From Escherichia coli (GTDB taxonomy: Bacteria; Pseudomonadota; Gammaproteobacteria; Enterobacterales; Enterobacteriaceae), in NCBI RefSeq assembly GCF_041248615.1, contig NZ_CP158426.1: a DNA stretch of 64,000 bases. One strand, 5' to 3'. The position numbers and the translations under genes are program-made. How positions within the stretch are numbered: position 1 is the stretch's first letter; the number at the start of each line of letters is the position of its first letter. Below the pieces are notes generated by a model. The model made no database searches. It saw nothing but the letters and a program-made list of their open reading frames with translations, and had not been told where the DNA came from. Positions 4,866 through 28,944 of this stretch are shown in pieces.

Positions 4866-5188
4866 ACTTTCAGGCCCCTCTCATGTAACCAGTGGGCTGC
4901 ACGCAGCCTGCCGTTTTCCTCACCGGCAAGCAGTGCGCGGATAATCCCGACCGCCTCGCTGTCGTCGTCCTTCACCGCGGTATGAAGCGTTATCCCCCGG
5001 GCCACGCCACGCTTTATCGTGATGACGCCTTTTTTCTCCAGTGCACGAAGATGCTCTACCGCTGCATTCACTGAACGGTATCCCAGCATGGTTGCCACCT
5101 CCTGATTGGTTGGCGGAAAGCCACGCTCTTTCTGGTAAGAAATCAGCATATCCAGCACCTGCTGCTGGCATTGAGTTAACGTCGTCAT
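4862..5188 (-). CDS. LexA-like N-terminal DNA-binding domain protein lacking the S24 peptidase domain (108 aa)
   Basis: LTQCQQQVLDMLISYQKERGFPPTNQEVATMLGYRSVNAAVEHLRALEKKGVITIKRGVARGITL parallels the LexA N-terminus. No Ala-Gly/Ser/Lys autocleavage module. TAATG coupling to the upstream gene. Confidence 0.7.
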   Translation of the reverse strand: MTTLTQCQQQVLDMLISYQKERGFPPTNQEVATMLGYRSVNAAVEHLRALEKKGVITIKRGVARGITLHTAVKDDDSEAVGIIRALLAGEENGRLRAAHWLHERGLKV

Positions 5189-5676
5189 TACGCCCCCACG
5201 TAATTCCCTGACAGATACCACTCATCACTCGATACAGCGCGCTTGCTGCTTTTCCGTAAACACTGCTCACGACGCGCCAGAAAATTGTTTCGTTCTGGCT
5301 GGGAGTGGCTTTCACGGAATGCCGCCATCCACACCGTTGCAGCACGACGGTATAAGCCCCTTGACTCCAGTTCTTCAGCCTGGCGGGTCAGGCACAAAAT
5401 CACCCGGGGATCGTTAGTGCCGACATAGAAATTGCGCACAGGTCTGGTTTCACGAACTGGTTGTGGTTCCGGCTCCTGCGCTCTCTCAGTCAGGCGCGGG
5501 AAATGTCTGCGTGTATCTCCTTCACAACGGTGAGCCACACGCCCACTCTGACGTAACTTGCTTGCTGACTGCAGAACGCGCTGCCGTGAGTAACCTGCAA
5601 AAGCATCCGCAATGTCTCCGGAAGTACACCCCGGATGGGCTTCAATGAATTTCTGAACTTCATTCAAAAGACTCAT
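5188..5676 (-). CDS. PerC-family transcriptional regulator-like protein (162 aa)
   Basis: QAEELESRGLYRRAATVWMAAF matches the PerC/Pch core motif (AE.LE..G.[WY]RRAA..W). Confidence 0.6.
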   Translation of the reverse strand: MSLLNEVQKFIEAHPGCTSGDIADAFAGYSRQRVLQSASKLRQSGRVAHRCEGDTRRHFPRLTERAQEPEPQPVRETRPVRNFYVGTNDPRVILCLTRQAEELESRGLYRRAATVWMAAFRESHSQPERNNFLARREQCLRKSSKRAVSSDEWYLSGNYVGA

Positions 5677-5678
5677 AA

Positions 5679-6620
5679 TCACCCCCTGAATCCTGCCGGG
5701 ATCTGGCTGTAGTCCACGTTGTCGTAACTGGCTTTGAAGTACGGGTCTTCACGTTTTTCTGTGTGCGTGCTGACGGACGGCGATAAGCGCAGGGAAAGCT
5801 CATCCCATTTTTCCCGCAACTTCGACGGGCTGAGCACGTTACGGCACCAGAACGGATCGCGGCTGACGCGGCTGTACATCTCGCAGATTTGTTTGTGAGT
5901 ACGACCATCCTGCACACACATCAGGCGAATTTCGTTTGCCCAGGCTGTCCAGTTAGGTTCTTTGGGACGAACCACCTCGCCGTCACATTCGGCGGCCTGC
6001 TCGTACAGGGCGATGATTTTTTTCCAGAGCCACTGTGCGCAGGTCAAATCATCCTGCGTTCCCCACTGGCGCTTTTTAGGGCTGAATACAACCGCATCAG
6101 GATGGCGAGTTAAAAAATCCTGTTCATCCATCTGCGTGTCCGGTTGCGAAGCGTCCGGACGAGAAGGTTTTTTATCTGATGGATCATGTTTTGATTTTAC
6201 TGACGGATCCCCGCCAGATTCTGACGGGTGAAAACCCGCTTTTTTGCCAGATTTCGACGCATCAAATTTTGACGGGTCAGATTTTGATGCGTCAGATTTT
6301 GACGGGTCAGAATCTGACAGTTGAGAAAATGCCGCTGCCTGAAGCTTCGCAACGTTAAGCTGATAAACATTCGACGCATTGCGGTTACCCTGGCGACGCG
6401 CCTTACGCGTTAACCAGCCTTCTGCTTCCAGCCGTGCGATAGCCGTTCTGACGGTACTCATCCCCGCGCCAATCTGACGGGCAATGGTTTCAATTGATGG
6501 CCAGCACACACCTTCGTCATTACTGAAATCAGCCAGGCGGGCCATAATTGCCACGCTGGATAACTTCATGCCTGATGCAGCGCAACCATCCCATACATAG
6601 CCGGTTAATTTAGTGCTCAT
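5679..6620 (-). CDS. Phage replication initiator (O-like; N-terminal winged-HTH, internal iteron-encoded repeats, DnaT-like C-terminal tail)
   Basis: wHTH WPSIETIARQIGAGMSTVRTAIARLEAEGWL. Pentapeptide repeats SDPSK/SDASK are encoded by 15-bp iterons. The C-terminus DYSQIPAGFRG resembles the DnaT C-terminus. Confidence 0.75.
   Translation of the reverse strand: MSTKLTGYVWDGCAASGMKLSSVAIMARLADFSNDEGVCWPSIETIARQIGAGMSTVRTAIARLEAEGWLTRKARRQGNRNASNVYQLNVAKLQAAAFSQLSDSDPSKSDASKSDPSKFDASKSGKKAGFHPSESGGDPSVKSKHDPSDKKPSRPDASQPDTQMDEQDFLTRHPDAVVFSPKKRQWGTQDDLTCAQWLWKKIIALYEQAAECDGEVVRPKEPNWTAWANEIRLMCVQDGRTHKQICEMYSRVSRDPFWCRNVLSPSKLREKWDELSLRLSPSVSTHTEKREDPYFKASYDNVDYSQIPAGFRG
6190..6322. repeat. Iteron array (putative ori) inside the replication gene
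   Basis: Five contiguous 15-bp units at 6248-6322 (cagatttcgacgcat, caaattttgacgggt, cagattttgatgcgt, cagattttgacgggt, cagaatctgacagtt), plus cagattctgacgggt at 6215-6229. Confidence 0.7.
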
Positions 6621-6789
6621 GACCGACCTCTATTTCCCTGAATTTACGACGAAACTGTTCGAGCGGACTGAAGCATTCATGCTCATAACCTTCGCGGAGG
6701 TAGATAACCCGTTGTGTTTCCGGCTCCCAACGAATGACTCTGACGAGCACTCCGTAGTGATCTTTGAACCAGCGGTTAACTTGTCGCAA
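6610..6789 (-). CDS. Alternative-frame 59-aa ORF (TTG start), or the frameshifted 3' half of the preceding gene
   Basis: AAGGAG 8 nt before the [62 protein letters not shown]. Its TAA overlaps the ATG region of the replication gene (catgagcactaa). Confidence 0.4.
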
Positions 6790-6968
6790 AGGACTGTCTC
6801 CTTCTGCCGGTTGAAATCACCCACAGCCCACTCTGCAAAGCTGTGGGTTACAATTTCCCTGTCACCTGGTACATTCACTGCATAGCAATATTCCACCTTC
6901 GCTTTTCCACCCGGTACAGGAAGCGCAATCAGTTGCGAGCGACGGTAGTGTGTTGTTAAACTGTTCAT
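6630..6968 (-). CDS. Track ORF of 112 aa; only the 5' ~60 codons look protein-like
   Basis: [52 protein letters not shown] looks coding. The Ser-rich tail looks like an out-of-frame read (see 6610-6789). Confidence 0.4.
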
Positions 6969-7544: not shown

Positions 7545-7793
7545 TTACTTTTCATCTGATGAATCTTTAATCTTTTGAAAAATATCTGGACGTAATTTTT
7601 CTTTTGATATGCCAGTGGTCTTTTCAATGAATATCGAGAGCTTTGCAGGGGGACGCTTTTCTCTGTTCAACCAGTTCCAGACATGTTGTTGCTTTACTAA
7701 ATGACCGCTGCTGGCTGTGAGCTTCCGAGCCAATTCTGATTGACCACCAGCCAGAGCGATTGCCTCCGATAAGGCTAATTGCTCAGGTGTCAT
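7545..7793 (-). CDS. Cro/YdaS-type HTH regulator (82 aa)
   Basis: HTH GGQSELARKLTASSGHLVKQQHVWNWL. Divergent from the cI-like repressor. Confidence 0.75.
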   Translation of the reverse strand: MTPEQLALSEAIALAGGQSELARKLTASSGHLVKQQHVWNWLNREKRPPAKLSIFIEKTTGISKEKLRPDIFQKIKDSSDEK

Positions 7794-7928: not shown

Positions 7929-8615
7929 GTGAAAACACTGGCAGAACGATTAAAGATAGGTAGAGAGAAAGCTGGCATGAGCCAAGCTCAACTAGCTGAA
8001 AAAATTGGACTTTCACAACAATCTGTAGCCAAAATAGAGAATGGCGAAACTCTACAACCGCGCAAAATTAAAGAAATTGCAAAAGTTTTAGGTGTATCAC
8101 AAAAGTGGTTACAACTTGGTATTGAAGACAACGCATCCATACCTGATCTTGTTGTAAAAGAAGCAGAAAGCACCGCATTAGACCCCGATATTTTCGTAAA
8201 CATTCCTGTTTTAGATGTCGAGTTATCGGCAGGTAACGGATGTCTGGCTGAAATAGTTGAATCAGCTATTGACTGGTTTCCGTTAAGAAGAGCAGATTTG
8301 AGAAAATCTGGCGTATGTGCATCTAATGCCAAGATCGTACAAATATGGGGGAACAGTTTATTACCGGTTCTCAATAATGGAGATCTTGTTGCCGTTGATA
8401 TTTCTCAAACCGTTCCTATTCGTGATGGCGATCTTTATGCCGTACGAGATGGTGTATTGCTAAGGGTTAAAATACTTATCAACTTACCTGACGGTGGCTT
8501 GATTCTTAGAAGCTTCAACAAAGATGAGTACCCAGATGAAATACTCACCTTTGAAGATAGACGAGCCAGAATTCATGTTATAGGTAGGGTATTCTGGTCA
8601 TCGCGAACTTGGTAA
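7929..8615 (+). CDS. CI-type prophage repressor (XRE HTH + S24 LexA-like peptidase, 228 aa, GTG start)
   Basis: HTH MSQAQLAEKIGLSQQSVAKIENG. Ala-Gly cleavage site (LSAGNG). GNSLLP Ser and a downstream Lys (LRVKIL). Confidence 0.9.
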   Translation: MKTLAERLKIGREKAGMSQAQLAEKIGLSQQSVAKIENGETLQPRKIKEIAKVLGVSQKWLQLGIEDNASIPDLVVKEAESTALDPDIFVNIPVLDVELSAGNGCLAEIVESAIDWFPLRRADLRKSGVCASNAKIVQIWGNSLLPVLNNGDLVAVDISQTVPIRDGDLYAVRDGVLLRVKILINLPDGGLILRSFNKDEYPDEILTFEDRRARIHVIGRVFWSSRTW

Positions 8616-9488
8616 TGCATCGAAAAGCATTTCTTCAGAAATAATTTTAAGTTTTGCACCATTATCATCCCTATAAGATATAGCCTTTTCGATCTTCCTT
8701 CCGTGACTAGAGAATTTCCAATCACGGGAGGAAAGCGTCCCAATTACTAAAAAATCCAACTTTTGAGTAATTCCACTACTGATGTTCCCACCAGCATTTT
8801 TAATCAAATTTTCAACTACGGCTCTCTTTCCTGCAACAAAAGTGCCTGTAAGACAATAGGTTTTACCCTCTAACTCTATCGAAGCCCCTACATCAATAGG
8901 CAGCCTGGTCGCCAAACCATCCACCACCCCACTTTCCAAGTCACATCCTGTGAAGTCTACTAATGCCTTATGTAGAGTTAAACTCTCATCTTCAGTAATA
9001 ACACCATCTTTAAGAATTTCCTTTACAAGTGCATAAAGTTTTTTTCCTGGGTAGTTGTTCTTCAAAGCTCCATTTTGCTCAAGCCACCAATTAAGATATC
9101 TTATTTCTTCTTGAGTTAAGTTCCGATCAGCAATTAATCCTTTACATAGTCCATTAAGTAAATGGACATCTACATCCTTGGAGTAAAAATCAATTTCAGG
9201 GATATCAAGAATTTCCCTCTGTATTTGGAGAAGACTATTTTTAAGGTCATCACGTTCTTCTGATGTGATTATTCCATCCGCAAGAATATCCGACACCCGT
9301 GCAGATAGACTTTTTATAACTCCATTATTGATAATCTGCTTTGCTTCAAGTAACCATGTATCTAAGTAAAGAACCTCCTCTTCACGGACAACTCCATCTG
9401 CAATGATTCCATCAATGATGCTAATCAAGTTAGCAAATAACTTGTCCCGGTTCTGTGTGTAATTAAAAGCGTAAAGCGCGTCTTCCAT
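8598..9488 (-). CDS. BRCT-domain protein with four TerB-like DG-[VI]-I/V-x-x-E-E repeats (296 aa from ATG-9488)
   Basis: C-terminal GKTYCLTGTFVAGKRAVVENLIKNAGGNISSGITQKLDFLVIG...W is the BRCT pattern. Strong AAAGGAGG SD. AT-rich by eye. Convergent with cI, with an 18-nt overlap. Confidence 0.75.
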   Translation of the reverse strand: MEDALYAFNYTQNRDKLFANLISIIDGIIADGVVREEEVLYLDTWLLEAKQIINNGVIKSLSARVSDILADGIITSEERDDLKNSLLQIQREILDIPEIDFYSKDVDVHLLNGLCKGLIADRNLTQEEIRYLNWWLEQNGALKNNYPGKKLYALVKEILKDGVITEDESLTLHKALVDFTGCDLESGVVDGLATRLPIDVGASIELEGKTYCLTGTFVAGKRAVVENLIKNAGGNISSGITQKLDFLVIGTLSSRDWKFSSHGRKIEKAISYRDDNGAKLKIISEEMLFDALPSSR

Positions 9489-9540
9489 ACAACCTCCTTT
9501 TTTTGATAATCCTTGCACTCCTTGGCTACTCGTTCAAACC

Positions 9541-11044: not shown

Positions 11045-11320
11045 GTGGCTTCTGTTTCTATCAGCTGTCCCTCCTGTTCAGCTACTGACGGGGTGGTGCG
11101 TAACGGCAAAAGCACCGCCGGACATCAGCGCTATCTCTGCTCTCACTGCCGTAAAACATGGCAACTGCAGTTCACTTACACCGCTTCTCAACCCGGTACG
11201 CACCAGAAAATCATTGATATGGCCATGAATGGCGTTGGATGCCGGGCAACCGCCCGCATTATGGGCGTTGGCCTCAACACGATTTTCCGCCATTTAAAAA
11301 ACTCAGGCCGCAGTCGGTAA
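11045..11320 (+). CDS. insA: IS1 InsA
   Basis: [43 protein letters not shown]... Confidence 0.95.
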
Positions 11321-11742
11321 CCTCGCGCATACAGCCGGGCAGTGACGTCATCGTCTGCGCGGAAATGGACGAACAGTGGGGATACGTCGGGGCTAAATCG
11401 CGCCAGCGCTGGCTGTTTTACGCGTATGACAGGCTCCGGAAGACGGTTGTTGCGCACGTATTCGGTGAACGCACTATGGCGACGCTGGGGCGTCTTATGA
11501 GCCTGCTGTCACCCTTTGACGTGGTGATATGGATGACGGATGGCTGGCCGCTGTATGAATCCCGCCTGAAGGGAAAGCTGCACGTAATCAGCAAGCGATA
11601 TACGCAGCGAATTGAGCGGCATAACCTGAATCTGAGGCAGCACCTGGCACGGCTGGGACGGAAGTCGCTGTCGTTCTCAAAATCGGTGGAGCTGCATGAC
11701 AAAGTCATCGGGCATTATCTGAACATAAAACACTATCAATAA
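11239..11742 (+). CDS. insB: IS1 InsB' frame (expressed as InsAB' by a -1 frameshift)
   Basis: A6C slippery run at 11296-11302. The rest of the frame reads as the canonical InsB sequence. Confidence 0.95.
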
Positions 11743-11792: not shown

Positions 11793-12617
11793 ATGTCTCA
11801 GAACTTAGACGCAACCGCAATTAATCAAATCCATGCCCTTATTTCTGCTCAGGGTGTTAATGAAATTATCAGTAAGATTGGTGCCGATGCTGTGGCATTG
11901 CCTGAGAATTTCCGCATTCATGATCTGGAAAAATTTAATTTAAATCGCTTCCGTTTCCGTGGTGCGCTTTCCACTGCCAGCATCGATGACTTTACCCGTT
12001 ATTCTAAAGATCTTGCAGATGAAGGCACCCGCTGCTTTATCGATGCTGATAATATGCGTGCCGTCAGTGTGCTTAACCTGGGTACTATTGATGAACCAGG
12101 TCACGCAGATAACACCGCCACACTCAAACTGAAAAAGACAGCACCGTTCTCTGCTCTGTTGTCTGTTAACGGCGAGCGTAACTCCCAGAAGTCACTGGCA
12201 GAATGGATTGAAGACTGGGCCGACTATCTTGTGGGCTTTGATGCTAATGGTGACGCTATTCAGGCAACAAAAGCGGCTGCGGCTGTCCGTAAAATCACGA
12301 TTGAAGCAAACCAGACCGCTGATTTTGAAGATAATGACTTCAGCGGCAAACGCTCCCTGATGGAGTCTGTCGAAGCGAAAACCAAAGACATTATGCCAGT
12401 GGCATTTGAATTTAAATGCGTTCCGTTTGAAGGCCTGAAAGAACGTCCGTTTAAATTACGCCTCAGCATTATCACTGGCGATCGTCCTGTACTGGTTCTG
12501 CGCATTATTCAGCTGGAAGCGGTGCAGGAAGAAATGGCTAACGAATTTCGTGATCTGCTTGTTGAGAAATTCAAAGACAGCAAAGTAGAAACCTTCATTG
12601 GTACTTTCAGCGCCTGA
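11793..12617 (+). CDS. YfdQ-like (DUF2303) protein, 274 aa
   Basis: Size and order match CPS-53 yfdQ. The family call is from memory. Confidence 0.6.
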
Positions 12618-12744
12618 TTTCATTACTGCAAATGCCCCTGCGGGGGCATTTATGGAAACATAATCGACTCAATAATCGCCGGATGGTGAGGGCTTCCTTT
12701 TACCAGAATTCAGCGTGGTGCAGCACATATACGTGGAGAACAAA

Positions 12745-13281
12745 ATGTCATTTATTAAAACTTTTTCTGGGAAGCATTTTTATTATGACAAGATAAATAA
12801 AGACGACATCGTGATTAACGATATCGCGGTTTCCCTTTCAAATATCTGTCGCTTTGCAGGACATCTTTCACACTTCTACAGCGTCGCCCAACATGCGGTG
12901 CTTTGCAGCCAACTGGTACCGCAGGAATTTGCTTTTGAAGCGTTAATGCATGATGCAACAGAAGCGTATTGTCAGGACATCCCCGCTCCACTGAAACGCC
13001 TTCTTCCTGACTATAAACGGATGGAAGAAAAAATAGACGCCGTAATCCGTGAGAAATACGGGTTACCCCCGGTTATGAGCACGCCTGTGAAATATGCCGA
13101 TCTCATCATGCTGGCAACTGAACGCCGCGAACTCGGGCTTGATGATGGCTCTTTCTGGCCAGTACTGGAAGGTATCCCGGCAACAGAGATGTTCAAAGTT
13201 ATTCCACTGGCTCCGGGTCATGCCTACGGGATGTTTATGGAACGTTTTAACGAGTTATCGGAGTTACGCAAATGCGCATGA
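12745..13281 (+). CDS. HD-domain phosphohydrolase, YfdR-like (178 aa)
   Basis: SVAQHAVL...LMHDATEAYCQDIPAPLK, the HD motif. Confidence 0.7.
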   Translation: MSFIKTFSGKHFYYDKINKDDIVINDIAVSLSNICRFAGHLSHFYSVAQHAVLCSQLVPQEFAFEALMHDATEAYCQDIPAPLKRLLPDYKRMEEKIDAVIREKYGLPPVMSTPVKYADLIMLATERRELGLDDGSFWPVLEGIPATEMFKVIPLAPGHAYGMFMERFNELSELRKCA

Positions 13282-14436: not shown

Positions 14437-15727
14437 TTGCCTGATTTTGATATGTTCAATCCAGCATCAAATGAAGGTTAATTTATGGACGAAAAACAGT
14501 TACAGGCTCTGGCTAACGAACTGGCCAAAAACCTCAAAACCCCTGAAGACCTCAGTCAGTTTGATCGGCTGCTGAAAAAGCTCAGCGTTGAAGCCGCTCT
14601 CAATGCAGAGATGACACACCATCTTGGGTATGAGAAAAATCAGTCCAGACCAGGAGCTAACTCCCGCAACGGTTATTCCACAAAGACCGTTATCACAGGC
14701 GACGGTCCACTGGAACTGCGTACTCCGCGCGATCGTGACGGTACCTTCGAACCACAACTGGTAAAGAAAAATCAGACCCGTATTACCGGGATGGATAACC
14801 AGATCCTCTCGTTGTATGCCAAAGGGATGACCACCCGTGAGATAGCCGCTGCGTTCAAAGAACTGTATGACGCAGATGTTTCACCGGCACTGATATCAAA
14901 GGTTACCGATGCCGTGATGGAGCAGGTTGTAGAATGGCAAAACCGACCACTGGATGCTGTTTACCCCATTGTTTATCTTGACTGTATCGTCCTGAAAGTT
15001 CGGCAGGACAGTCGCATCATCAACAAATCGGTGTTCCTGGCACTGGGCATCAATATCGAAGGTCAGAAAGAACTGCTGGGTATGTGGCTGGCCGAAAATG
15101 AAGGGGCGAAGTTCTGGCTCAATGTGCTGACTGAACTGAAAAACCGCGGTCTGAACGATATCCTCATCGCCTGTGTGGATGGCCTGAAAGGCTTCCCGGA
15201 TGCCATCAACACAGTATATCCGAAGGCCCGCATCCAGTTATGCATCGTGCATATGGTGCGCAACAGCCTGCGCTTCGTGTCATGGAAGGACTACAAAGCC
15301 GTCACTCGCGACCTGAAAGCGATTTATCAGGCTCCCACGGAAGAGGCAGGTCAGCAGGCACTGGAAGCGTTCGCTGCGGCCTGGGACAGTCGCTATCCTC
15401 AGATAAGCCGAAGCTGGCAGGCTAACTGGCCGAATCTTGCCACGTTCTTCGCTTATCCAACGGACATCCGCAAAGTGATCTATACGACGAATGCCATCGA
15501 GTCGCTAAACAGCGTGATCCGCCATGCGATCAAAAAGCGTAAAGTGTTCCCGACAGACGACTCGGTGAAAAAAGTGGTGTGGCTGGCAATCCAGTCTGCG
15601 TCCCAGAAATGGACGATGCCGTTGAAGGACTGGCGAATGGCAATGAGCCGCTTTATTATCGAGTTCGGTGACCGCCTGGACGGTCACTTCTGAGAAAAGG
15701 CATTTACACAGAATCCTAAACAGGCTC
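14413..15727 (+). mobile_element. IS256-family (mutator-type) insertion sequence, 1315 bp
   Basis: Imperfect ~29-bp terminal inverted repeats (gagcctgtacatagatttgtgtaattgcc / ggcatttacacagaatcctaaacaggctc). An 8-bp target duplication GGGCATCA sits at 14405-14412 and 15728-15735. Confidence 0.9.
14485..15693 (+). CDS. IS256-family transposase (402 aa)
   Basis: Mutator-family layout: ...YLDCIVLKVR..., ...IACVDGLKGFPDAI..., ...TTNAIESLN... Confidence 0.92.
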   Translation: MDEKQLQALANELAKNLKTPEDLSQFDRLLKKLSVEAALNAEMTHHLGYEKNQSRPGANSRNGYSTKTVITGDGPLELRTPRDRDGTFEPQLVKKNQTRITGMDNQILSLYAKGMTTREIAAAFKELYDADVSPALISKVTDAVMEQVVEWQNRPLDAVYPIVYLDCIVLKVRQDSRIINKSVFLALGINIEGQKELLGMWLAENEGAKFWLNVLTELKNRGLNDILIACVDGLKGFPDAINTVYPKARIQLCIVHMVRNSLRFVSWKDYKAVTRDLKAIYQAPTEEAGQQALEAFAAAWDSRYPQISRSWQANWPNLATFFAYPTDIRKVIYTTNAIESLNSVIRHAIKKRKVFPTDDSVKKVVWLAIQSASQKWTMPLKDWRMAMSRFIIEFGDRLDGHF

Positions 15728-15878: not shown

Positions 15879-18011
15879 TCAATCTTTAAGACTAATTGTG
15901 ATTGCATCTGGAAATCCAATTTGGCTATAGCACATAGTTTCGGTTATGAATAATTTTCTATCGATAAAATCAAGTACATCTTTTTTCGTGAGCCCCGTTA
16001 ACATCGTCAATTTGTTAATTACATAATCATACCAATCATGGTGAAGCATGTTTATATACATGTTAATATCAACTGCATCTTTCTTCCATGAATTATTCGG
16101 TATCAAATCTTCAGATAAAAATCCTCTTATTAAATCGCTTGCATAGGACATCCTAAGAAAAACAGAAAGAAAAAGCCTTACATTAACATGTGTAAAATTT
16201 GTAGATAGCGTCGAAGGAAACTCGTAAAACCGGTAGATCAACCGACTTACAAAAACAGCAGAGTCTATCGCATTTACAGGCAGTAATGTTCCGATGACAC
16301 TTAATGCACCACTTATAACGAAGCCATTAGCAACAGAGGCATGAGAACCACTTAGGGCAGATGTTAAACATGCACTCAGAATTACGATAGGAGGAATTCT
16401 TGCTATTTTTCTCAAACTCCAAGTGTCCACTTTATCCTCACCTATTATTAACCATCCATGACTCCCATTGCCATCATGGTTTCCATGACAATCCATAACA
16501 AGAATATGACCTTGATATTGATTTAGAGCATCAATAAACTCAGCTTTCGATCTAACATCAATAATCTCGCAATCAAGATCTGGCATCTGTTTTTTAAATA
16601 TCTCAATTGCGTTCTCTAATATGAACTTTAAGTGATCATCAGGCTCAAAAGAACGTATAACTAAAACCTTTCTCAACTCAGATGCTTTTACTAAAACGCG
16701 CGGAAAAGCAGAGGCGCTCTGTAGAAGAACGTTACCAGGCGTAGCATTTATTCTTGATATCTCATGACTGAACATTATAGGTATGTTATTAAACCTAATC
16801 CAATCCAATGGTACATCACAAACAAAGGACAAATCGCTATAGTTTTTACTTATATATGTTCTCAACTTGCAACCAAGGGCTCTTCGAATAACAGTATTGA
16901 ATGCTTTAGATTTAGTGATGAATGCTTCACTATTTATCCCAGAAGAAGTTGCAAGATCTTCAAGATTTTTCAAATAATTGGAGTAATGATTTATTGCATT
17001 TGGCAATCTTATTGCTGGGATTTTTTTATTTATGCTAAATAAAGTAATCGCAGCTGTTGTTAATCGCATTTCAGCGCGTCTTAGTGAGGTGAGGTAACGG
17101 AAAGCAGGACTTTTAAAAAGTTCTTTTCTATCTGAATTTATATCAAGTCTAATTCCAGAATAGCCTGGATTCCTCAACACTCCATCAATAAGGAATTTTT
17201 TCTCAATTGTGGATAAATTTTCCGTTATTAACTCATAAAAGTCATTATTTTTATCATATAAAAAAGAGTGCATACCCGGAGCAAAAAGTAAGACTTCCGT
17301 TGGAAGTGGTATATCTAATTCCTTTAAACATTCGGTGTATGCATCAACGCTATGAAGTATTATTTCTATAAACTCTCTTTTGCTACTACCATCTTTAATT
17401 CTTTTTGGTGGAGATAGCATATAGCCAAGTGATTCAATTAACAACTCATTGGGTAGTGTTGAATTGTTAAGCGTCGATCTCCAAGGTGATTTATTAAATA
17501 AAGCCCCTCTTCGCTTCAACTTCGTTGATATTTTCTTTTCACTGTGATTTTTTCTTATTTTATCCTCAATGAATTTCAACCGAGAGAAGAGCACCTTATC
17601 AAATGAGTATATACTATTAATCTTATTAAGTGGTAGATCAGCGCGTTTAGAATTGCAACAAATTATAGGTGGTATAGCAAAATGTTTTTTTAAAGCACAA
17701 ACATACGAAAAATCTTCTTTAGCACAAAAAATTAAGCAAAATGGCGTTTGATAAATATTTGGTATTTTTTCAAGATTTTCTTTAGATATTAAAAAAATAG
17801 GATTTAGCCCGCTTAGAGTAGGCTGAAAGTTATCATTTTCACTGACAAAAATCTCACTAATTTCTTTTGGTGTTTTGGCCAATAAAAAAAGAATGTTGGA
17901 TATCTCTGGGTTGAGGAGGCCAGTATCGAAACCTTGGATTATGGTTTGTTCCCCAGTAGTAGGCATGATTACAACTTTAAGTATCGCCCCGTGTTCCTGT
18001 AACAGTTCCAT
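15879..18011 (-). CDS. CHAT/caspase-like domain protein with a ~470-aa unassigned N-terminal region (710 aa from ATG-18011; track ORF extends to 18068 via TTG)
   Basis: His-Cys dyad context ILVMDCHGNHDG (His codon 16485-16487) and PPIVILSACLTSA (Cys codon 16368-16370), ~38 aa apart. Very AT-rich. TATAAT on the minus strand at 18095-18100. Confidence 0.7.
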   Translation of the reverse strand: MELLQEHGAILKVVIMPTTGEQTIIQGFDTGLLNPEISNILFLLAKTPKEISEIFVSENDNFQPTLSGLNPIFLISKENLEKIPNIYQTPFCLIFCAKEDFSYVCALKKHFAIPPIICCNSKRADLPLNKINSIYSFDKVLFSRLKFIEDKIRKNHSEKKISTKLKRRGALFNKSPWRSTLNNSTLPNELLIESLGYMLSPPKRIKDGSSKREFIEIILHSVDAYTECLKELDIPLPTEVLLFAPGMHSFLYDKNNDFYELITENLSTIEKKFLIDGVLRNPGYSGIRLDINSDRKELFKSPAFRYLTSLRRAEMRLTTAAITLFSINKKIPAIRLPNAINHYSNYLKNLEDLATSSGINSEAFITKSKAFNTVIRRALGCKLRTYISKNYSDLSFVCDVPLDWIRFNNIPIMFSHEISRINATPGNVLLQSASAFPRVLVKASELRKVLVIRSFEPDDHLKFILENAIEIFKKQMPDLDCEIIDVRSKAEFIDALNQYQGHILVMDCHGNHDGNGSHGWLIIGEDKVDTWSLRKIARIPPIVILSACLTSALSGSHASVANGFVISGALSVIGTLLPVNAIDSAVFVSRLIYRFYEFPSTLSTNFTHVNVRLFLSVFLRMSYASDLIRGFLSEDLIPNNSWKKDAVDINMYINMLHHDWYDYVINKLTMLTGLTKKDVLDFIDRKLFITETMCYSQIGFPDAITISLKD

Positions 18012-18144: not shown

Positions 18145-19362
18145 CTAGTCTGAACAAGTACAAGTAACTATCGATTCAACTCTCTCCCACCATGCCTGGT
18201 AAGCTTTACGCTGTTCATCTAAATAATCGCTCTTGTCATAAACCTGCCATACCCCTGGCAGTTTATGACCGAGCATTATTTCTGCAATATGAGGTGCAGT
18301 AAGATCAGAAAAGTTTGTTCGTGCTGTTCGTCTCAAATCATGAAGAGACCAATGAGGGAATTGATACCCCAAACGCCGCCATGCGTACTGCATTAAATTG
18401 TAAGGCAGCGACTGCAATGATGTCCGGCCAACGGGTTCCCTGCTTCCTTCCTTAGTAAAAAGCATATCGGAACCATTGTTCATAGAGATAACGTACTTTA
18501 TAAGCTCTTCAACCGGTTCAATAATGGGGCGCTTTAGCGGTTCGCCTGTTATATCCCCTGTCTTATGTCGTTCTGGCGGTACAGTCCATACCTTATTAAT
18601 GAAATCAAAATCATTCACCCTAGCGGTAATTAGCTCTGAACTACGGCAGCCAAAATGCAGCAATAGTTTAATGAAGGCCCGGTATTTAGGAACCATTCGA
18701 GAACCATCGATCGCAGCATAAAGGATTTTAATTTCATCATGTGTCAGAAACCGTTTCTTCTGACCTTTACGGATATCCATATCTTTACCCGTGATATCCG
18801 ACAGCGGGCGAGTTTCAATGAGCTTTCTCTTATACGCCCAGACATGGGCCTGCTTTGCGTTAATTAGCAATCGGTCTGCTATTGCTGGAGTCTTAGTGCT
18901 AAGAGGCTCCAGGACTTCTAACCAATCATGCAATGTAGCTGCATCGTGAGGGATATTCCCGATTTTAGAGAACAGGTGCAGCTCAAACGAGCGGAGTATC
19001 TGTTCAGAACCTTTTTTATTTTTTACACAATATGCTTCATACCAGGCACGGATCACAGACTCTACCGTCATGGCTTCAGTAGCTTTTCGTTTTTCAGCCT
19101 GCTTGACTAATCGTGGATTGCGGTTTGACTCGAGTTCACCACGGAGACGGATAACTTCTTCTCTGGCCTCTTTTAATCCAGTTGCCGGGTAAGTTCCGAT
19201 ATCAAGGCGCTCACCTTTCCCTGCCCATTGATAACGATATTGGAACACTACGCGACCTTTCGGTGATACTCTGACAGACAGACCATCACGATCGGATTTA
19301 ACCAAAACCTTATCACGTTCCTTTCCAACGACTGAACGCAACCACGCATCAGACAGCGCCAT
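18145..19362 (-). CDS. Tyrosine integrase, P4-like (405 aa)
   Basis: N-terminal DUF4102-type arm-binding region (LSVRVSPKGRVVFQYRY). Catalytic WSLHDLRRTARTNF and LGHK...VYDKSDY. Confidence 0.92.
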   Translation of the reverse strand: MALSDAWLRSVVGKERDKVLVKSDRDGLSVRVSPKGRVVFQYRYQWAGKGERLDIGTYPATGLKEAREEVIRLRGELESNRNPRLVKQAEKRKATEAMTVESVIRAWYEAYCVKNKKGSEQILRSFELHLFSKIGNIPHDAATLHDWLEVLEPLSTKTPAIADRLLINAKQAHVWAYKRKLIETRPLSDITGKDMDIRKGQKKRFLTHDEIKILYAAIDGSRMVPKYRAFIKLLLHFGCRSSELITARVNDFDFINKVWTVPPERHKTGDITGEPLKRPIIEPVEELIKYVISMNNGSDMLFTKEGSREPVGRTSLQSLPYNLMQYAWRRLGYQFPHWSLHDLRRTARTNFSDLTAPHIAEIMLGHKLPGVWQVYDKSDYLDEQRKAYQAWWERVESIVTCTCSD

Positions 19363-27664: not shown

Positions 27665-28204
27665 ATGTCTTCCAGAGTTTTGACCCCGGACGTCGTTGGT
27701 ATTGACGCCCTGGTACACGATCACCAAACCGTTCTGGCAAAAGCTGAAGGCGGTGTGGTTGCCGTATTTGCTAACAATGCCCCGGCGTTTTATGCCGTCA
27801 CGCCTGCACGCCTGGCTGAACTGCTAGCGCTGGAAGAAAAGCTGGCGCGTCCGGGAAGCGATGTCGCTCTGGACGATCAACTCTATCAGGAACCGCAAGC
27901 TGCTCCCGTTGCTGTACCCATGGGGAAATTCGCCATGTATCCGGACTGGCAACCCGATGCCGACTTTATCCGCCTGGCGGCGCTATGGGGCGTGGCACTA
28001 AGAGCGCCGGTGACCACCGAAGAACTGGCCTCATTCATTGCCTACTGGCAGGCGGAAGGTAAAGTCTTTCACCATGTGCAGTGGCAACAAAAACTGGCGC
28101 GCAGCCTGCAAATCGGTCGTGCCAGCAACGGCGGACTGCCTAAACGAGATGTGAATACGGTCAGTGAACCTGACAGCCAAATTCCACCAGGATTCAGAGG
28201 GTAA
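27665..28204 (+). CDS. dnaT: Primosomal protein DnaT (179 aa)
   Basis: [30 protein letters not shown]...[13 protein letters not shown]. Confidence 0.95.
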
Positions 28205-28206
28205 CG

Positions 28207-28944
28207 ATGAAAAACGTTGGCGACCTGATGCAACGCCTGCAAAAAATGATGCCTGCCCATATCAAACCTGCTTTCAAAACGGGTGAAGAACTACTGGCCT
28301 GGCAGAAAGAACAAGGGGCGATCCGCTCCGCCGCTCTCGAACGTGAAAATCGGGCGATGAAAATGCAGCGCACCTTTAACCGCTCCGGTATTCGTCCACT
28401 GCATCAGAACTGCTCCTTTGAGAACTATCGCGTTGAGTGTGAAGGGCAGATGAATGCGTTAAGCAAAGCGCGCCAGTATGTCGAAGAGTTTGACGGCAAC
28501 ATCGCCAGCTTCATCTTTTCTGGTAAGCCAGGAACCGGCAAAAACCATCTGGCGGCGGCAATCTGCAACGAGCTGCTGCTACGCGGTAAATCCGTATTGA
28601 TCATCACCGTGGCCGATATTATGTCGGCGATGAAAGATACCTTCAGGAATAGCGGTACCAGCGAAGAACAACTGCTTAACGATCTGAGCAATGTTGATCT
28701 GCTGGTGATCGATGAGATCGGCGTGCAAACCGAATCGAAATACGAAAAAGTGATCATCAACCAGATCGTCGATCGCCGCTCTTCTTCCAAACGCCCAACC
28801 GGGATGCTGACCAACAGTAATATGGAAGAGATGACCAAGTTGCTGGGCGAACGCGTGATGGACCGTATGCGCCTGGGTAACAGTTTGTGGGTGATCTTCA
28901 ACTGGGATAGCTACCGTAGCCGGGTAACGGGTAAAGAGTATTAA
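28207..28944 (+). CDS. dnaC: Helicase loader DnaC
   Basis: Walker A GKPGTGKNHL. Synteny with dnaT. Confidence 0.95.
   Translation: MKNVGDLMQRLQKMMPAHIKPAFKTGEELLAWQKEQGAIRSAALERENRAMKMQRTFNRSGIRPLHQNCSFENYRVECEGQMNALSKARQYVEEFDGNIASFIFSGKPGTGKNHLAAAICNELLLRGKSVLIITVADIMSAMKDTFRNSGTSEEQLLNDLSNVDLLVIDEIGVQTESKYEKVIINQIVDRRSSSKRPTGMLTNSNMEEMTKLLGERVMDRMRLGNSLWVIFNWDSYRSRVTGKEY

Follow-up and report, generated by a model that had tools for sequence, protein, structure and literature searches.

A lambda-O-type prophage initiator of Escherichia coli shares its C-terminal tail with DnaT and may use it to load the host helicase

The replication initiator gene of a prophage was analyzed in a window of 64,000 nucleotides of Escherichia coli DNA (RefSeq assembly GCF_041248615.1, contig NZ_CP158426.1), which also carries the host genes dnaT and dnaC. 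The initiator shares 99.4% identity with the Shigella phage SfII "O protein" and combines the three traits of lambda-O-like initiators, namely, a winged helix, iterons within the gene, and an O-type C-terminal domain. Its last residues are shared with DnaT, and no helicase-loader gene follows it. The features of the initiator gene and of the two host genes are as follows.

5679-6620, minus strand: replication initiator gene, 313 amino acids (PHROG 391, phrog_391, E 1.5e-135, "replication initiation O-like")
6324-6620, minus strand: N-terminal, origin-binding winged helix, residues 1-99 (Pfam HTH_36)
6200-6322: iteron array, about five copies with a 15-bp period and a partly palindromic GTCAGAWTYTGAC-type unit (repeat and inverted-repeat search)
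6165-6200: A-rich stretch adjoining the iterons, presumed unwinding element (read from the sequence)
6135-6314, minus strand: disordered low-complexity linker, residues 103-162 (SDSDPSKSDASKSDPSKFDASKS...), with an AlphaFold2 (AF2) predicted local distance difference test (pLDDT) score of <50
5787-6125, minus strand: helical C-terminal domain, residues 166-278 (homology to lambda O and phi80 gp15)
5682-5786, minus strand: flexible C-terminal tail, residues 279-313 (AF2 and alignment)
5754: mosaic junction, 24 codons before the initiator stop (blastn against phage mEp460)
5682-5717, minus strand: terminal motif VDYSQIPAGFRG, residues 302-313, common to DnaT
27665-28204, plus strand: host dnaT, 179 amino acids (NCBIfam NF002770, E 1.4e-104), with the tail motif codons at 28166-28201
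28207-28944, plus strand: host dnaC, which begins 2 nucleotides past the dnaT stop

In the AF2 model of the initiator, built on an alignment of 45 sequences, the C-terminal domain has block pLDDT values of about 87 to 96, except for a single block at 75. The block means of residues 281 to 313 are 46 to 60, and values fall below 50 at residues 284 to 292 and 294 to 296. Residues 166 to 277 share 39% identity with lambda O (tblastn, E 1e-17), and an alignment of lambda-O-type C-terminal domains contains 16 invariant columns. After a conserved LSLKLS, the aligned initiators diverge by tail class. In lambda O, classical genetics maps P binding to this domain. The N-terminal part of the linker is encoded by the iterons, a layout in which the origin lies within the initiator gene. 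The iteron array is the presumed origin, and the A-rich stretch, by its likeness to ori-lambda, may be the origin-unwinding element.

The initiator C terminus reads ...KASYDNVDYSQIPAGFRG-stop (i.e., ...YDNVDYSQIPAGFRG), with NVDYSQIPAGFRG as the tail peptide. A previous reading of the window from its letters alone (the sequence-only reading) had claimed that host DnaT ends in the same motif. BLASTP of the initiator against DnaT supports this claim, since the tail alone aligns, with 8 of 9 residues identical (residues 305 to 313 against 171 to 179). A scan of the whole window for stop-to-stop frames with a minimum length of 30 codons found that the pattern P.GFR.?$ ends just 2 of 1178 frames, those of the initiator and DnaT. 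IP.GFRG is at least 90% conserved among 106 DnaT orthologues. The DnaT proteins of Buchnera, Profftia, and Tachikawaea, with identities of 30% to 45%, still terminate in IPxGF[RK][GDS], and in these endosymbiont genomes of 0.4 to 0.7 Mb the tail is kept while the preceding linker diverges. Most full-length initiator homologues terminate in [DY]..[IV]PxGFR[GST]. The conservation of the tail in both families rules out chance, as had been supposed. The resemblance did not extend to the level of profiles, where DnaT homology had been suggested as a check: the DnaT domain Pfam PF17948 does not match the initiator at E ≤ 0.1, NCBIfam NF002770 (DnaT) does not match it either, and an hhalign comparison of the initiator's C-terminal domain family with the C-terminal domain of DnaT yields a probability of 0.2%. 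Of the DnaT features tested, the initiator has only the IPxGFRG tail and is without the three-helix domain, the N-terminal domain, and the acidic PriB-binding linker. In DnaT, the last ~20 residues are highly flexible by nuclear magnetic resonance (PMC5778457).

The initiator belongs to the early-right operon of the prophage, which includes the following genes.

7545-7793: cro, start of the early-right operon
5188-5682, minus strand: PerC-like gene, yfdN homologue (Pfam PerC, E 7.8e-10), which overlaps the initiator stop codon
1729-2481: Q-like antiterminator, end of the early-right operon

Beyond the PerC-like gene, the order is LexA-DBD, RusA, KilA-N, DUF968, and the Q-like antiterminator. 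No loader or helicase gene was found in the cro-to-Q operon, and tblastn of the whole window with lambda-P-family, DnaC, and P22 gp12 references gave no match besides host dnaC. Thus, the PerC-like gene downstream and the lack of a loader in this operon, both read from the letters before, hold. The reservation that a loader might sit in an unseen left part of the operon falls away, since the entire cro-to-Q operon lies within the window. A lambda-P-type gene does not adjoin the initiator, and neither the window nor the SfII genome yielded a P homologue. A phage DnaC homologue is likewise absent directly 3' of the initiator, and host dnaC is the only DnaC homologue of the window. SfII and SPN1S, whose initiators have GFRG tails, are phages that form plaques or can be induced, and no P, DnaC, or DnaB homologues were found in their complete genomes. 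The genes directly 3' of the initiator in 217 loader-less loci encode PerC, a DNA methyltransferase, a RuvC-like protein, DUF1064, or similar proteins, with PerC being the commonest (108 of 217). PerC was considered as a hidden loader and rejected, because methyltransferase, RuvC-like, and DUF1064 genes fill the same position in other loader-less loci.

The tail is a portable module. Initiator scaffolds of at least four unrelated kinds carry the motif, among them YdaU of the K-12 Rac prophage and YfdO of K-12 CPS-53; the scaffolds comprise the lambda-O type, the DnaT type (SPN1S), the SfV/mEp460 type, DUF1376 (YdaU), and proteins with neither domain. DNA homology to phage mEp460 (97%) runs from position 5754 downstream into the PerC gene, whereas the initiator gene upstream of this junction has no DNA similarity to mEp460 by blastn, and the mEp460 replication protein and the initiator have the last 33 amino acids alone in common. 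Because the homology starts 24 codons before the stop, recombination carries the tail along with the module that lies downstream. YfdO (L374:5879-6247) corresponds to the C-terminal 122 amino acids of the initiator, that is, the domain plus the GFRG tail, and, if expressed, would offer a fragment, already at hand, with which the partner of the tail could be titrated.

To relate tails to loaders, initiator loci were drawn from phage records and viral contigs, with several query initiators used to sample the tail classes. The loci were classed by the last residues of the initiator and by the downstream genes, and the counts below are of unique sequences.

Lambda-O-type domain, GFR-type tail: no loader, 43; DnaC, 1; lambda-P type, 0
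Lambda-O-type domain, other tail: no loader, 0; DnaC, 0; lambda-P type, 45
DnaT-type domain, GFR-type tail: no loader, 27; DnaC, 6 (2 of them host dnaT-dnaC); lambda-P type, 0
DnaT-type domain, other tail: no loader, 0; DnaC, 0; lambda-P type, 25

Tail type matches loader type without exception across about 150 unique initiators. Over both families, the 77 GFR-type tails are followed by no loader in 70 cases, by an adjacent DnaC gene in 7, and by a lambda-P-type gene in none, while a P-type loader comes next after all 70 other tails. One non-GFR lambda-O-type sequence (L212), which has an ambiguous residue and no detectable loader, was omitted from the table. Tails ending in ..DRRIE, ..GDYSAH, and ..DWRDD precede diverged P-family genes. 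The P genes overlap or abut the initiator stop, and the longest open reading frames (ORFs) of some P-like genes overlap the initiator by >60 nucleotides. Precomputed Pfam context agrees with the tail rule, with PF06992 after P0064 and P0041 and none after P0072. The lambda-O-type domain initiators of a Vibrio phage and a Bacillus phage come with tails and loaders of other kinds.

On trees built from the domain cores, parsimony required at least five changes of tail state in each domain family. Within the genus Uetakevirus, the GFRG-tailed SPN1S lacks a loader, whereas phiV10 combines a HWNSPEAWEDFL tail with a P loader. The repeated switches and this contrast show that the match between tail and loader is not one inherited event. 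The P-paired initiators (L090-L175 and L292-L333) have conserved tails of their own, including HWNSPE[AG]WxxxL, TDW[IA]YG, ..GDYSAH, ..DRRIE, and ..DWRDD. These are probably P-docking peptides, which suggests a general tail code.

Where a phage carries its own dnaC, it is paired with the same tail. Among 33 species-level phage-type dnaC loci, a GFR-type tail ends the upstream gene in all 29 intact cases, 25 of which have IPxGFRG and 4 the variants KPPGFN, KPAGFS, and KPPEFN. The upstream gene typically stops 3 nucleotides before the phage dnaC, and its product may have a lambda-O-type, a DnaT-type, or neither C-terminal domain. In the K-12 Rac prophage (L373:2620-4230), YdaU is a DUF1376 protein of 285 amino acids that ends in ...SLPDSAIPPGFRG (...VNTVSLPDSAIPPGFRG), and 7 nucleotides after it comes YdaV, a DnaC homologue with 50% identity. 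YdaU-YdaV is thus a paralogous "DnaT-DnaC-like" pair in K-12, parallel to dnaT-dnaC. Host DnaC is ~50 to 53% identical to the phage DnaC homologues behind GFR-tailed initiators, and the DnaC helix Q81-A84-A88-Y91-F95, which includes the site of the dnaC1331 change A84Y, does not vary among 34 DnaCs of hosts and phages. Co-variation of GFRG versus PPGFN/PPEFN tails with DnaC residues came down to one clade and one uninformative column. Two enterobacterial-phage-type initiator-DnaC modules, in Sphingomonas sp. NPDC019816 (L361) and Micromonospora sp. NPDC049891 (L370), probably reflect assembly contamination.

The protein is read here as a lambda-O-type initiator in which the terminal ~12 residues, a short linear motif of the form [DY]xx[IV]PxGFRG, recruit DnaB-DnaC, most likely through DnaC, and we consider this reading somewhat better than even. 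The N-terminal winged helix would bind the 15-bp iterons within its own gene, and the initiator would then oligomerize on them and open the adjacent A-rich DNA. The tail would capture host DnaB6-DnaC6, most probably via DnaC, and the helicase would be loaded without a phage loader. DnaB-DnaC is the suggested target because the tail is found alongside DnaC genes, both in phages and in the host. Lacking a DnaC of its own, the module studied here would have to use that of the host. DnaC is favored as the contact for two reasons: the genes for tailed proteins adjoin dnaC in the host, in Rac, and in many prophages, and the motif is absent from the other loading systems seen. The tails would serve as exchangeable address labels, those of the GFRG type leading to DnaC and HWNSPEGWxxxL, TDWIYG, and others to lambda-P-type loaders. 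The tail would couple a DNA-bound scaffold to DnaC-dependent loading, this scaffold being the initiator on its iterons in the phage and DnaT on the PriA-bound fork in the host. The broader proposal, that phage initiators use the tail peptide of DnaT to load the host helicase, that tails form an address code for DnaC or lambda P, and that dnaT-dnaC is a domesticated phage module of the YdaU-YdaV type, is offered tentatively, at somewhat less than even chances.

Several points weigh against recruitment of DnaB-DnaC by the tail. Gene adjacency cannot separate DnaC, DnaB, or the complex of the two as the contact, and enterobacterial prophages make up most of the sample. Phages with their own dnaC were predicted in hosts lacking DnaC; instead, they occur as prophages in Enterobacterales such as Citrobacter, Kluyvera, Leclercia, Enterobacter, and Serratia, hosts that already have DnaC. 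Removal of the last 18 to 26 residues of DnaT turns the trimer into a dimer (Szymanski 2013, as cited in PMC5314882 and PMC5778457) and approximately doubles the dissociation constant for single-stranded DNA (ssDNA), from 12.9 to 27.1 uM (PMC4132743). [quoted passage not shown] The 2024 and 2026 papers from this laboratory state that how the PriA/PriB/DnaT preprimosome recruits DnaB-DnaC is unknown (PMC11087952, PMC13377028), and the published preprimosome structures and biochemistry show no contact of DnaC with PriA, PriB, or DnaT. DnaC A84Y (dnaC1331) specifically blocks the PriA/PriB pathway (PMC11087952).

The motif common to DnaT and the initiator could instead mean that a DnaT-mimicking tail joins the initiator to the PriA/PriB/DnaT restart primosome via PriB or PriA and that DnaB is loaded there, which would accord with DnaT acting solely within PriA pathways (PMC5778457). 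In the 2026 preprimosome structures, however, the globular C-terminal domain of DnaT contacts PriA and linker 70-88 contacts PriB, and the initiator lacks both; the accessible part of that paper describes no contact of the DnaT tail (PMC13377028). The DnaT chains are deposited as residues 1-179 in PDB 9ZBT (intermediate) and as 1-154 in PDB 9ZBU (mature preprimosome), so the tail is absent from the mature model. With phage genomes pairing the tail with dnaC and never with priA or priB, this route seems quite improbable. Of the DnaT-tail mimicry put forward by the sequence-only reading, comparative genomics strongly supports the idea that the phage needs no loader of its own, whereas the plug-in to PriA/PriB is unlikely, as the initiator is without the contacting parts of DnaT. 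DnaA domain I and several plasmid initiators bind DnaB directly, and the tail might do the same, leaving DnaC as merely a generic ring opener. Loader-less phages still need host DnaB, and the exclusion with P, itself a DnaB binder, would also fit competition for DnaB. Yet DnaB is universal and the tail was seen with DnaC-type systems only, each intact phage dnaC sits behind a tail-bearing gene, and the lambda-O-type domain initiators from Vibrio and Bacillus phages bear tails of other kinds, which leaves direct DnaB binding unlikely.

The truncation data on DnaT also bear on a tail that is no recruitment motif, serving instead as a self-association or ssDNA-cooperativity element that drives trimerization of DnaT and oligomerization of the initiator at the origin. 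DnaT 1-161 is a dimer and not a trimer (PMC5314882, PMC5778457), and ssDNA binding by DnaT 84-153 is weaker and less cooperative than that by 84-179 (PMC4132743). Such an element would leave the strict exclusion of P loaders and the adjacency of dnaC unexplained, and, as the scaffolds that carry the motif are of at least four unrelated kinds, they offer no common core domain on which it could dock within its own protein; we give this explanation little chance. It is also doubtful, to much the same degree, that the tail addresses another host factor, such as PriC, SSB, the beta clamp, a chaperone, or a protease, and that its correlation with loaders is a by-product of module linkage. PriC has been reported to bind DnaT (PMC5778457), and linkage effects do exist, as the tail and the DNA module downstream of it move together. 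However, a matching loader state was kept in all of the at least 10 inferred tail switches, and the heterogeneous genes 3' of loader-less initiators mean that no alternative common partner gene is linked. Recruitment of DnaB-DnaC, probably through DnaC, remains the reading that we favor.

The initiator resembles lambda O/P and phi80 gp15/gp14 in its origin-binding domain, in-gene iterons, disordered linker, and homologous C-terminal domain. It differs in that its module is without P and in that the last ~30 residues are replaced, with lambda ending in ...LDLTNTDWIYGVDL and the initiator in ...VDYSQIPAGFRG. With E. coli DnaT-DnaC it shares IPxGFRG on a flexible tail and a presumed dependence on DnaC for loading, but it recognizes an origin sequence, whereas DnaT recognizes a PriA-bound fork. 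The initiators of DnaC-type lambdoid modules, such as Rac YdaU-YdaV and Aeromonas phage pAEv1818, also end in a GFR-type tail, but they typically have their own DnaC homologue 3 to 16 nucleotides downstream, which the initiator studied here lacks. DnaC-type loaders have been reported in O157 Sakai Sp4, Sp10, and Sp12 (PMC2669165). The SfV and mEp460 replication proteins have the identical 33-amino-acid tail followed by a PerC gene. For SfII O, SfV, mEp460, and YfdO, the records and literature searched give only the labels "O protein family," "replication protein," and "helix-turn-helix domain-containing," and note neither a tail motif nor a mechanism. The SSB tip (DDDIPF) is a functional analogy only, a conserved end-motif on a disordered tail with unrelated sequence and partners. 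This C-terminal tip of SSB recruits partner proteins to DNA-bound scaffolds. DopC-DopE is a domesticated O-like/P-like pair, and HTH_36 initiators can bear DnaT-related C-terminal parts (Brezellec 2017, PMC5509034); DopC differs from the initiator in having the DnaT globular domain and a P-like partner, and the tail motif is not discussed there. Thus, DnaT-like domains in O-like proteins (PMC5509034) and the P-, DnaC-, and DnaB-type lambdoid replication modules (PMC2669165) were already known. The shared tail motif, the match between tail and loader, and a mechanism for loader-less lambdoid modules were not described in the literature searched, some subscription papers being beyond reach.

The remainder of the prophage includes the following gene.

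18145-19362: prophage integrase

At 6610-6968 on the minus strand, two ORFs overlap in different frames of the same strand. ORF 6630-6968 (112 amino acids, phrog_1170) is annotated in SfII and ORF 6610-6789 (59 amino acids, Pfam DUF4222) in RefSeq; each has family support, and the two annotations conflict. A 306-amino-acid BRCT-domain protein (RefSeq; 8598-9518, minus strand), directly downstream of and convergent with the cI-like repressor, is unusual prophage cargo. The CHAT-domain protein beside the integrase (15879-18011, minus strand) is a candidate defense or accessory gene, whose position is occupied by Dsr1 in related prophages. Insertions of IS1 and IS1414 in the early-left region (11045-11742 and 14485-15693) mean that the prophage may be partly defective. 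Homologues of yfdQ and yfdR lie at 11793-13281. Binding of DnaA and inhibition of initiation have been reported for K-12 YfdR (PMC4776307), so the prophage may disturb host replication initiation at a second point. The cold-shock genes cspB and cspF (579-794 and 1094-1306), between Q and the lysis genes, are Qin-like late-region cargo.

For the host, the comparison of phages points to a peptide of 7 to 12 residues, conserved from E. coli to Buchnera, as a possible recruiter of DnaB-DnaC. The tail may be the handle that brings DnaB-DnaC to DNA, which is testable with existing K-12 reagents. For annotation, the last residues of an initiator would predict its loading route. If true, the proposal would explain the initiator-only replication of SfII, SfV, mEp460, SPN1S, and epsilon15-like relatives, which are widespread temperate phages of enterobacteria.

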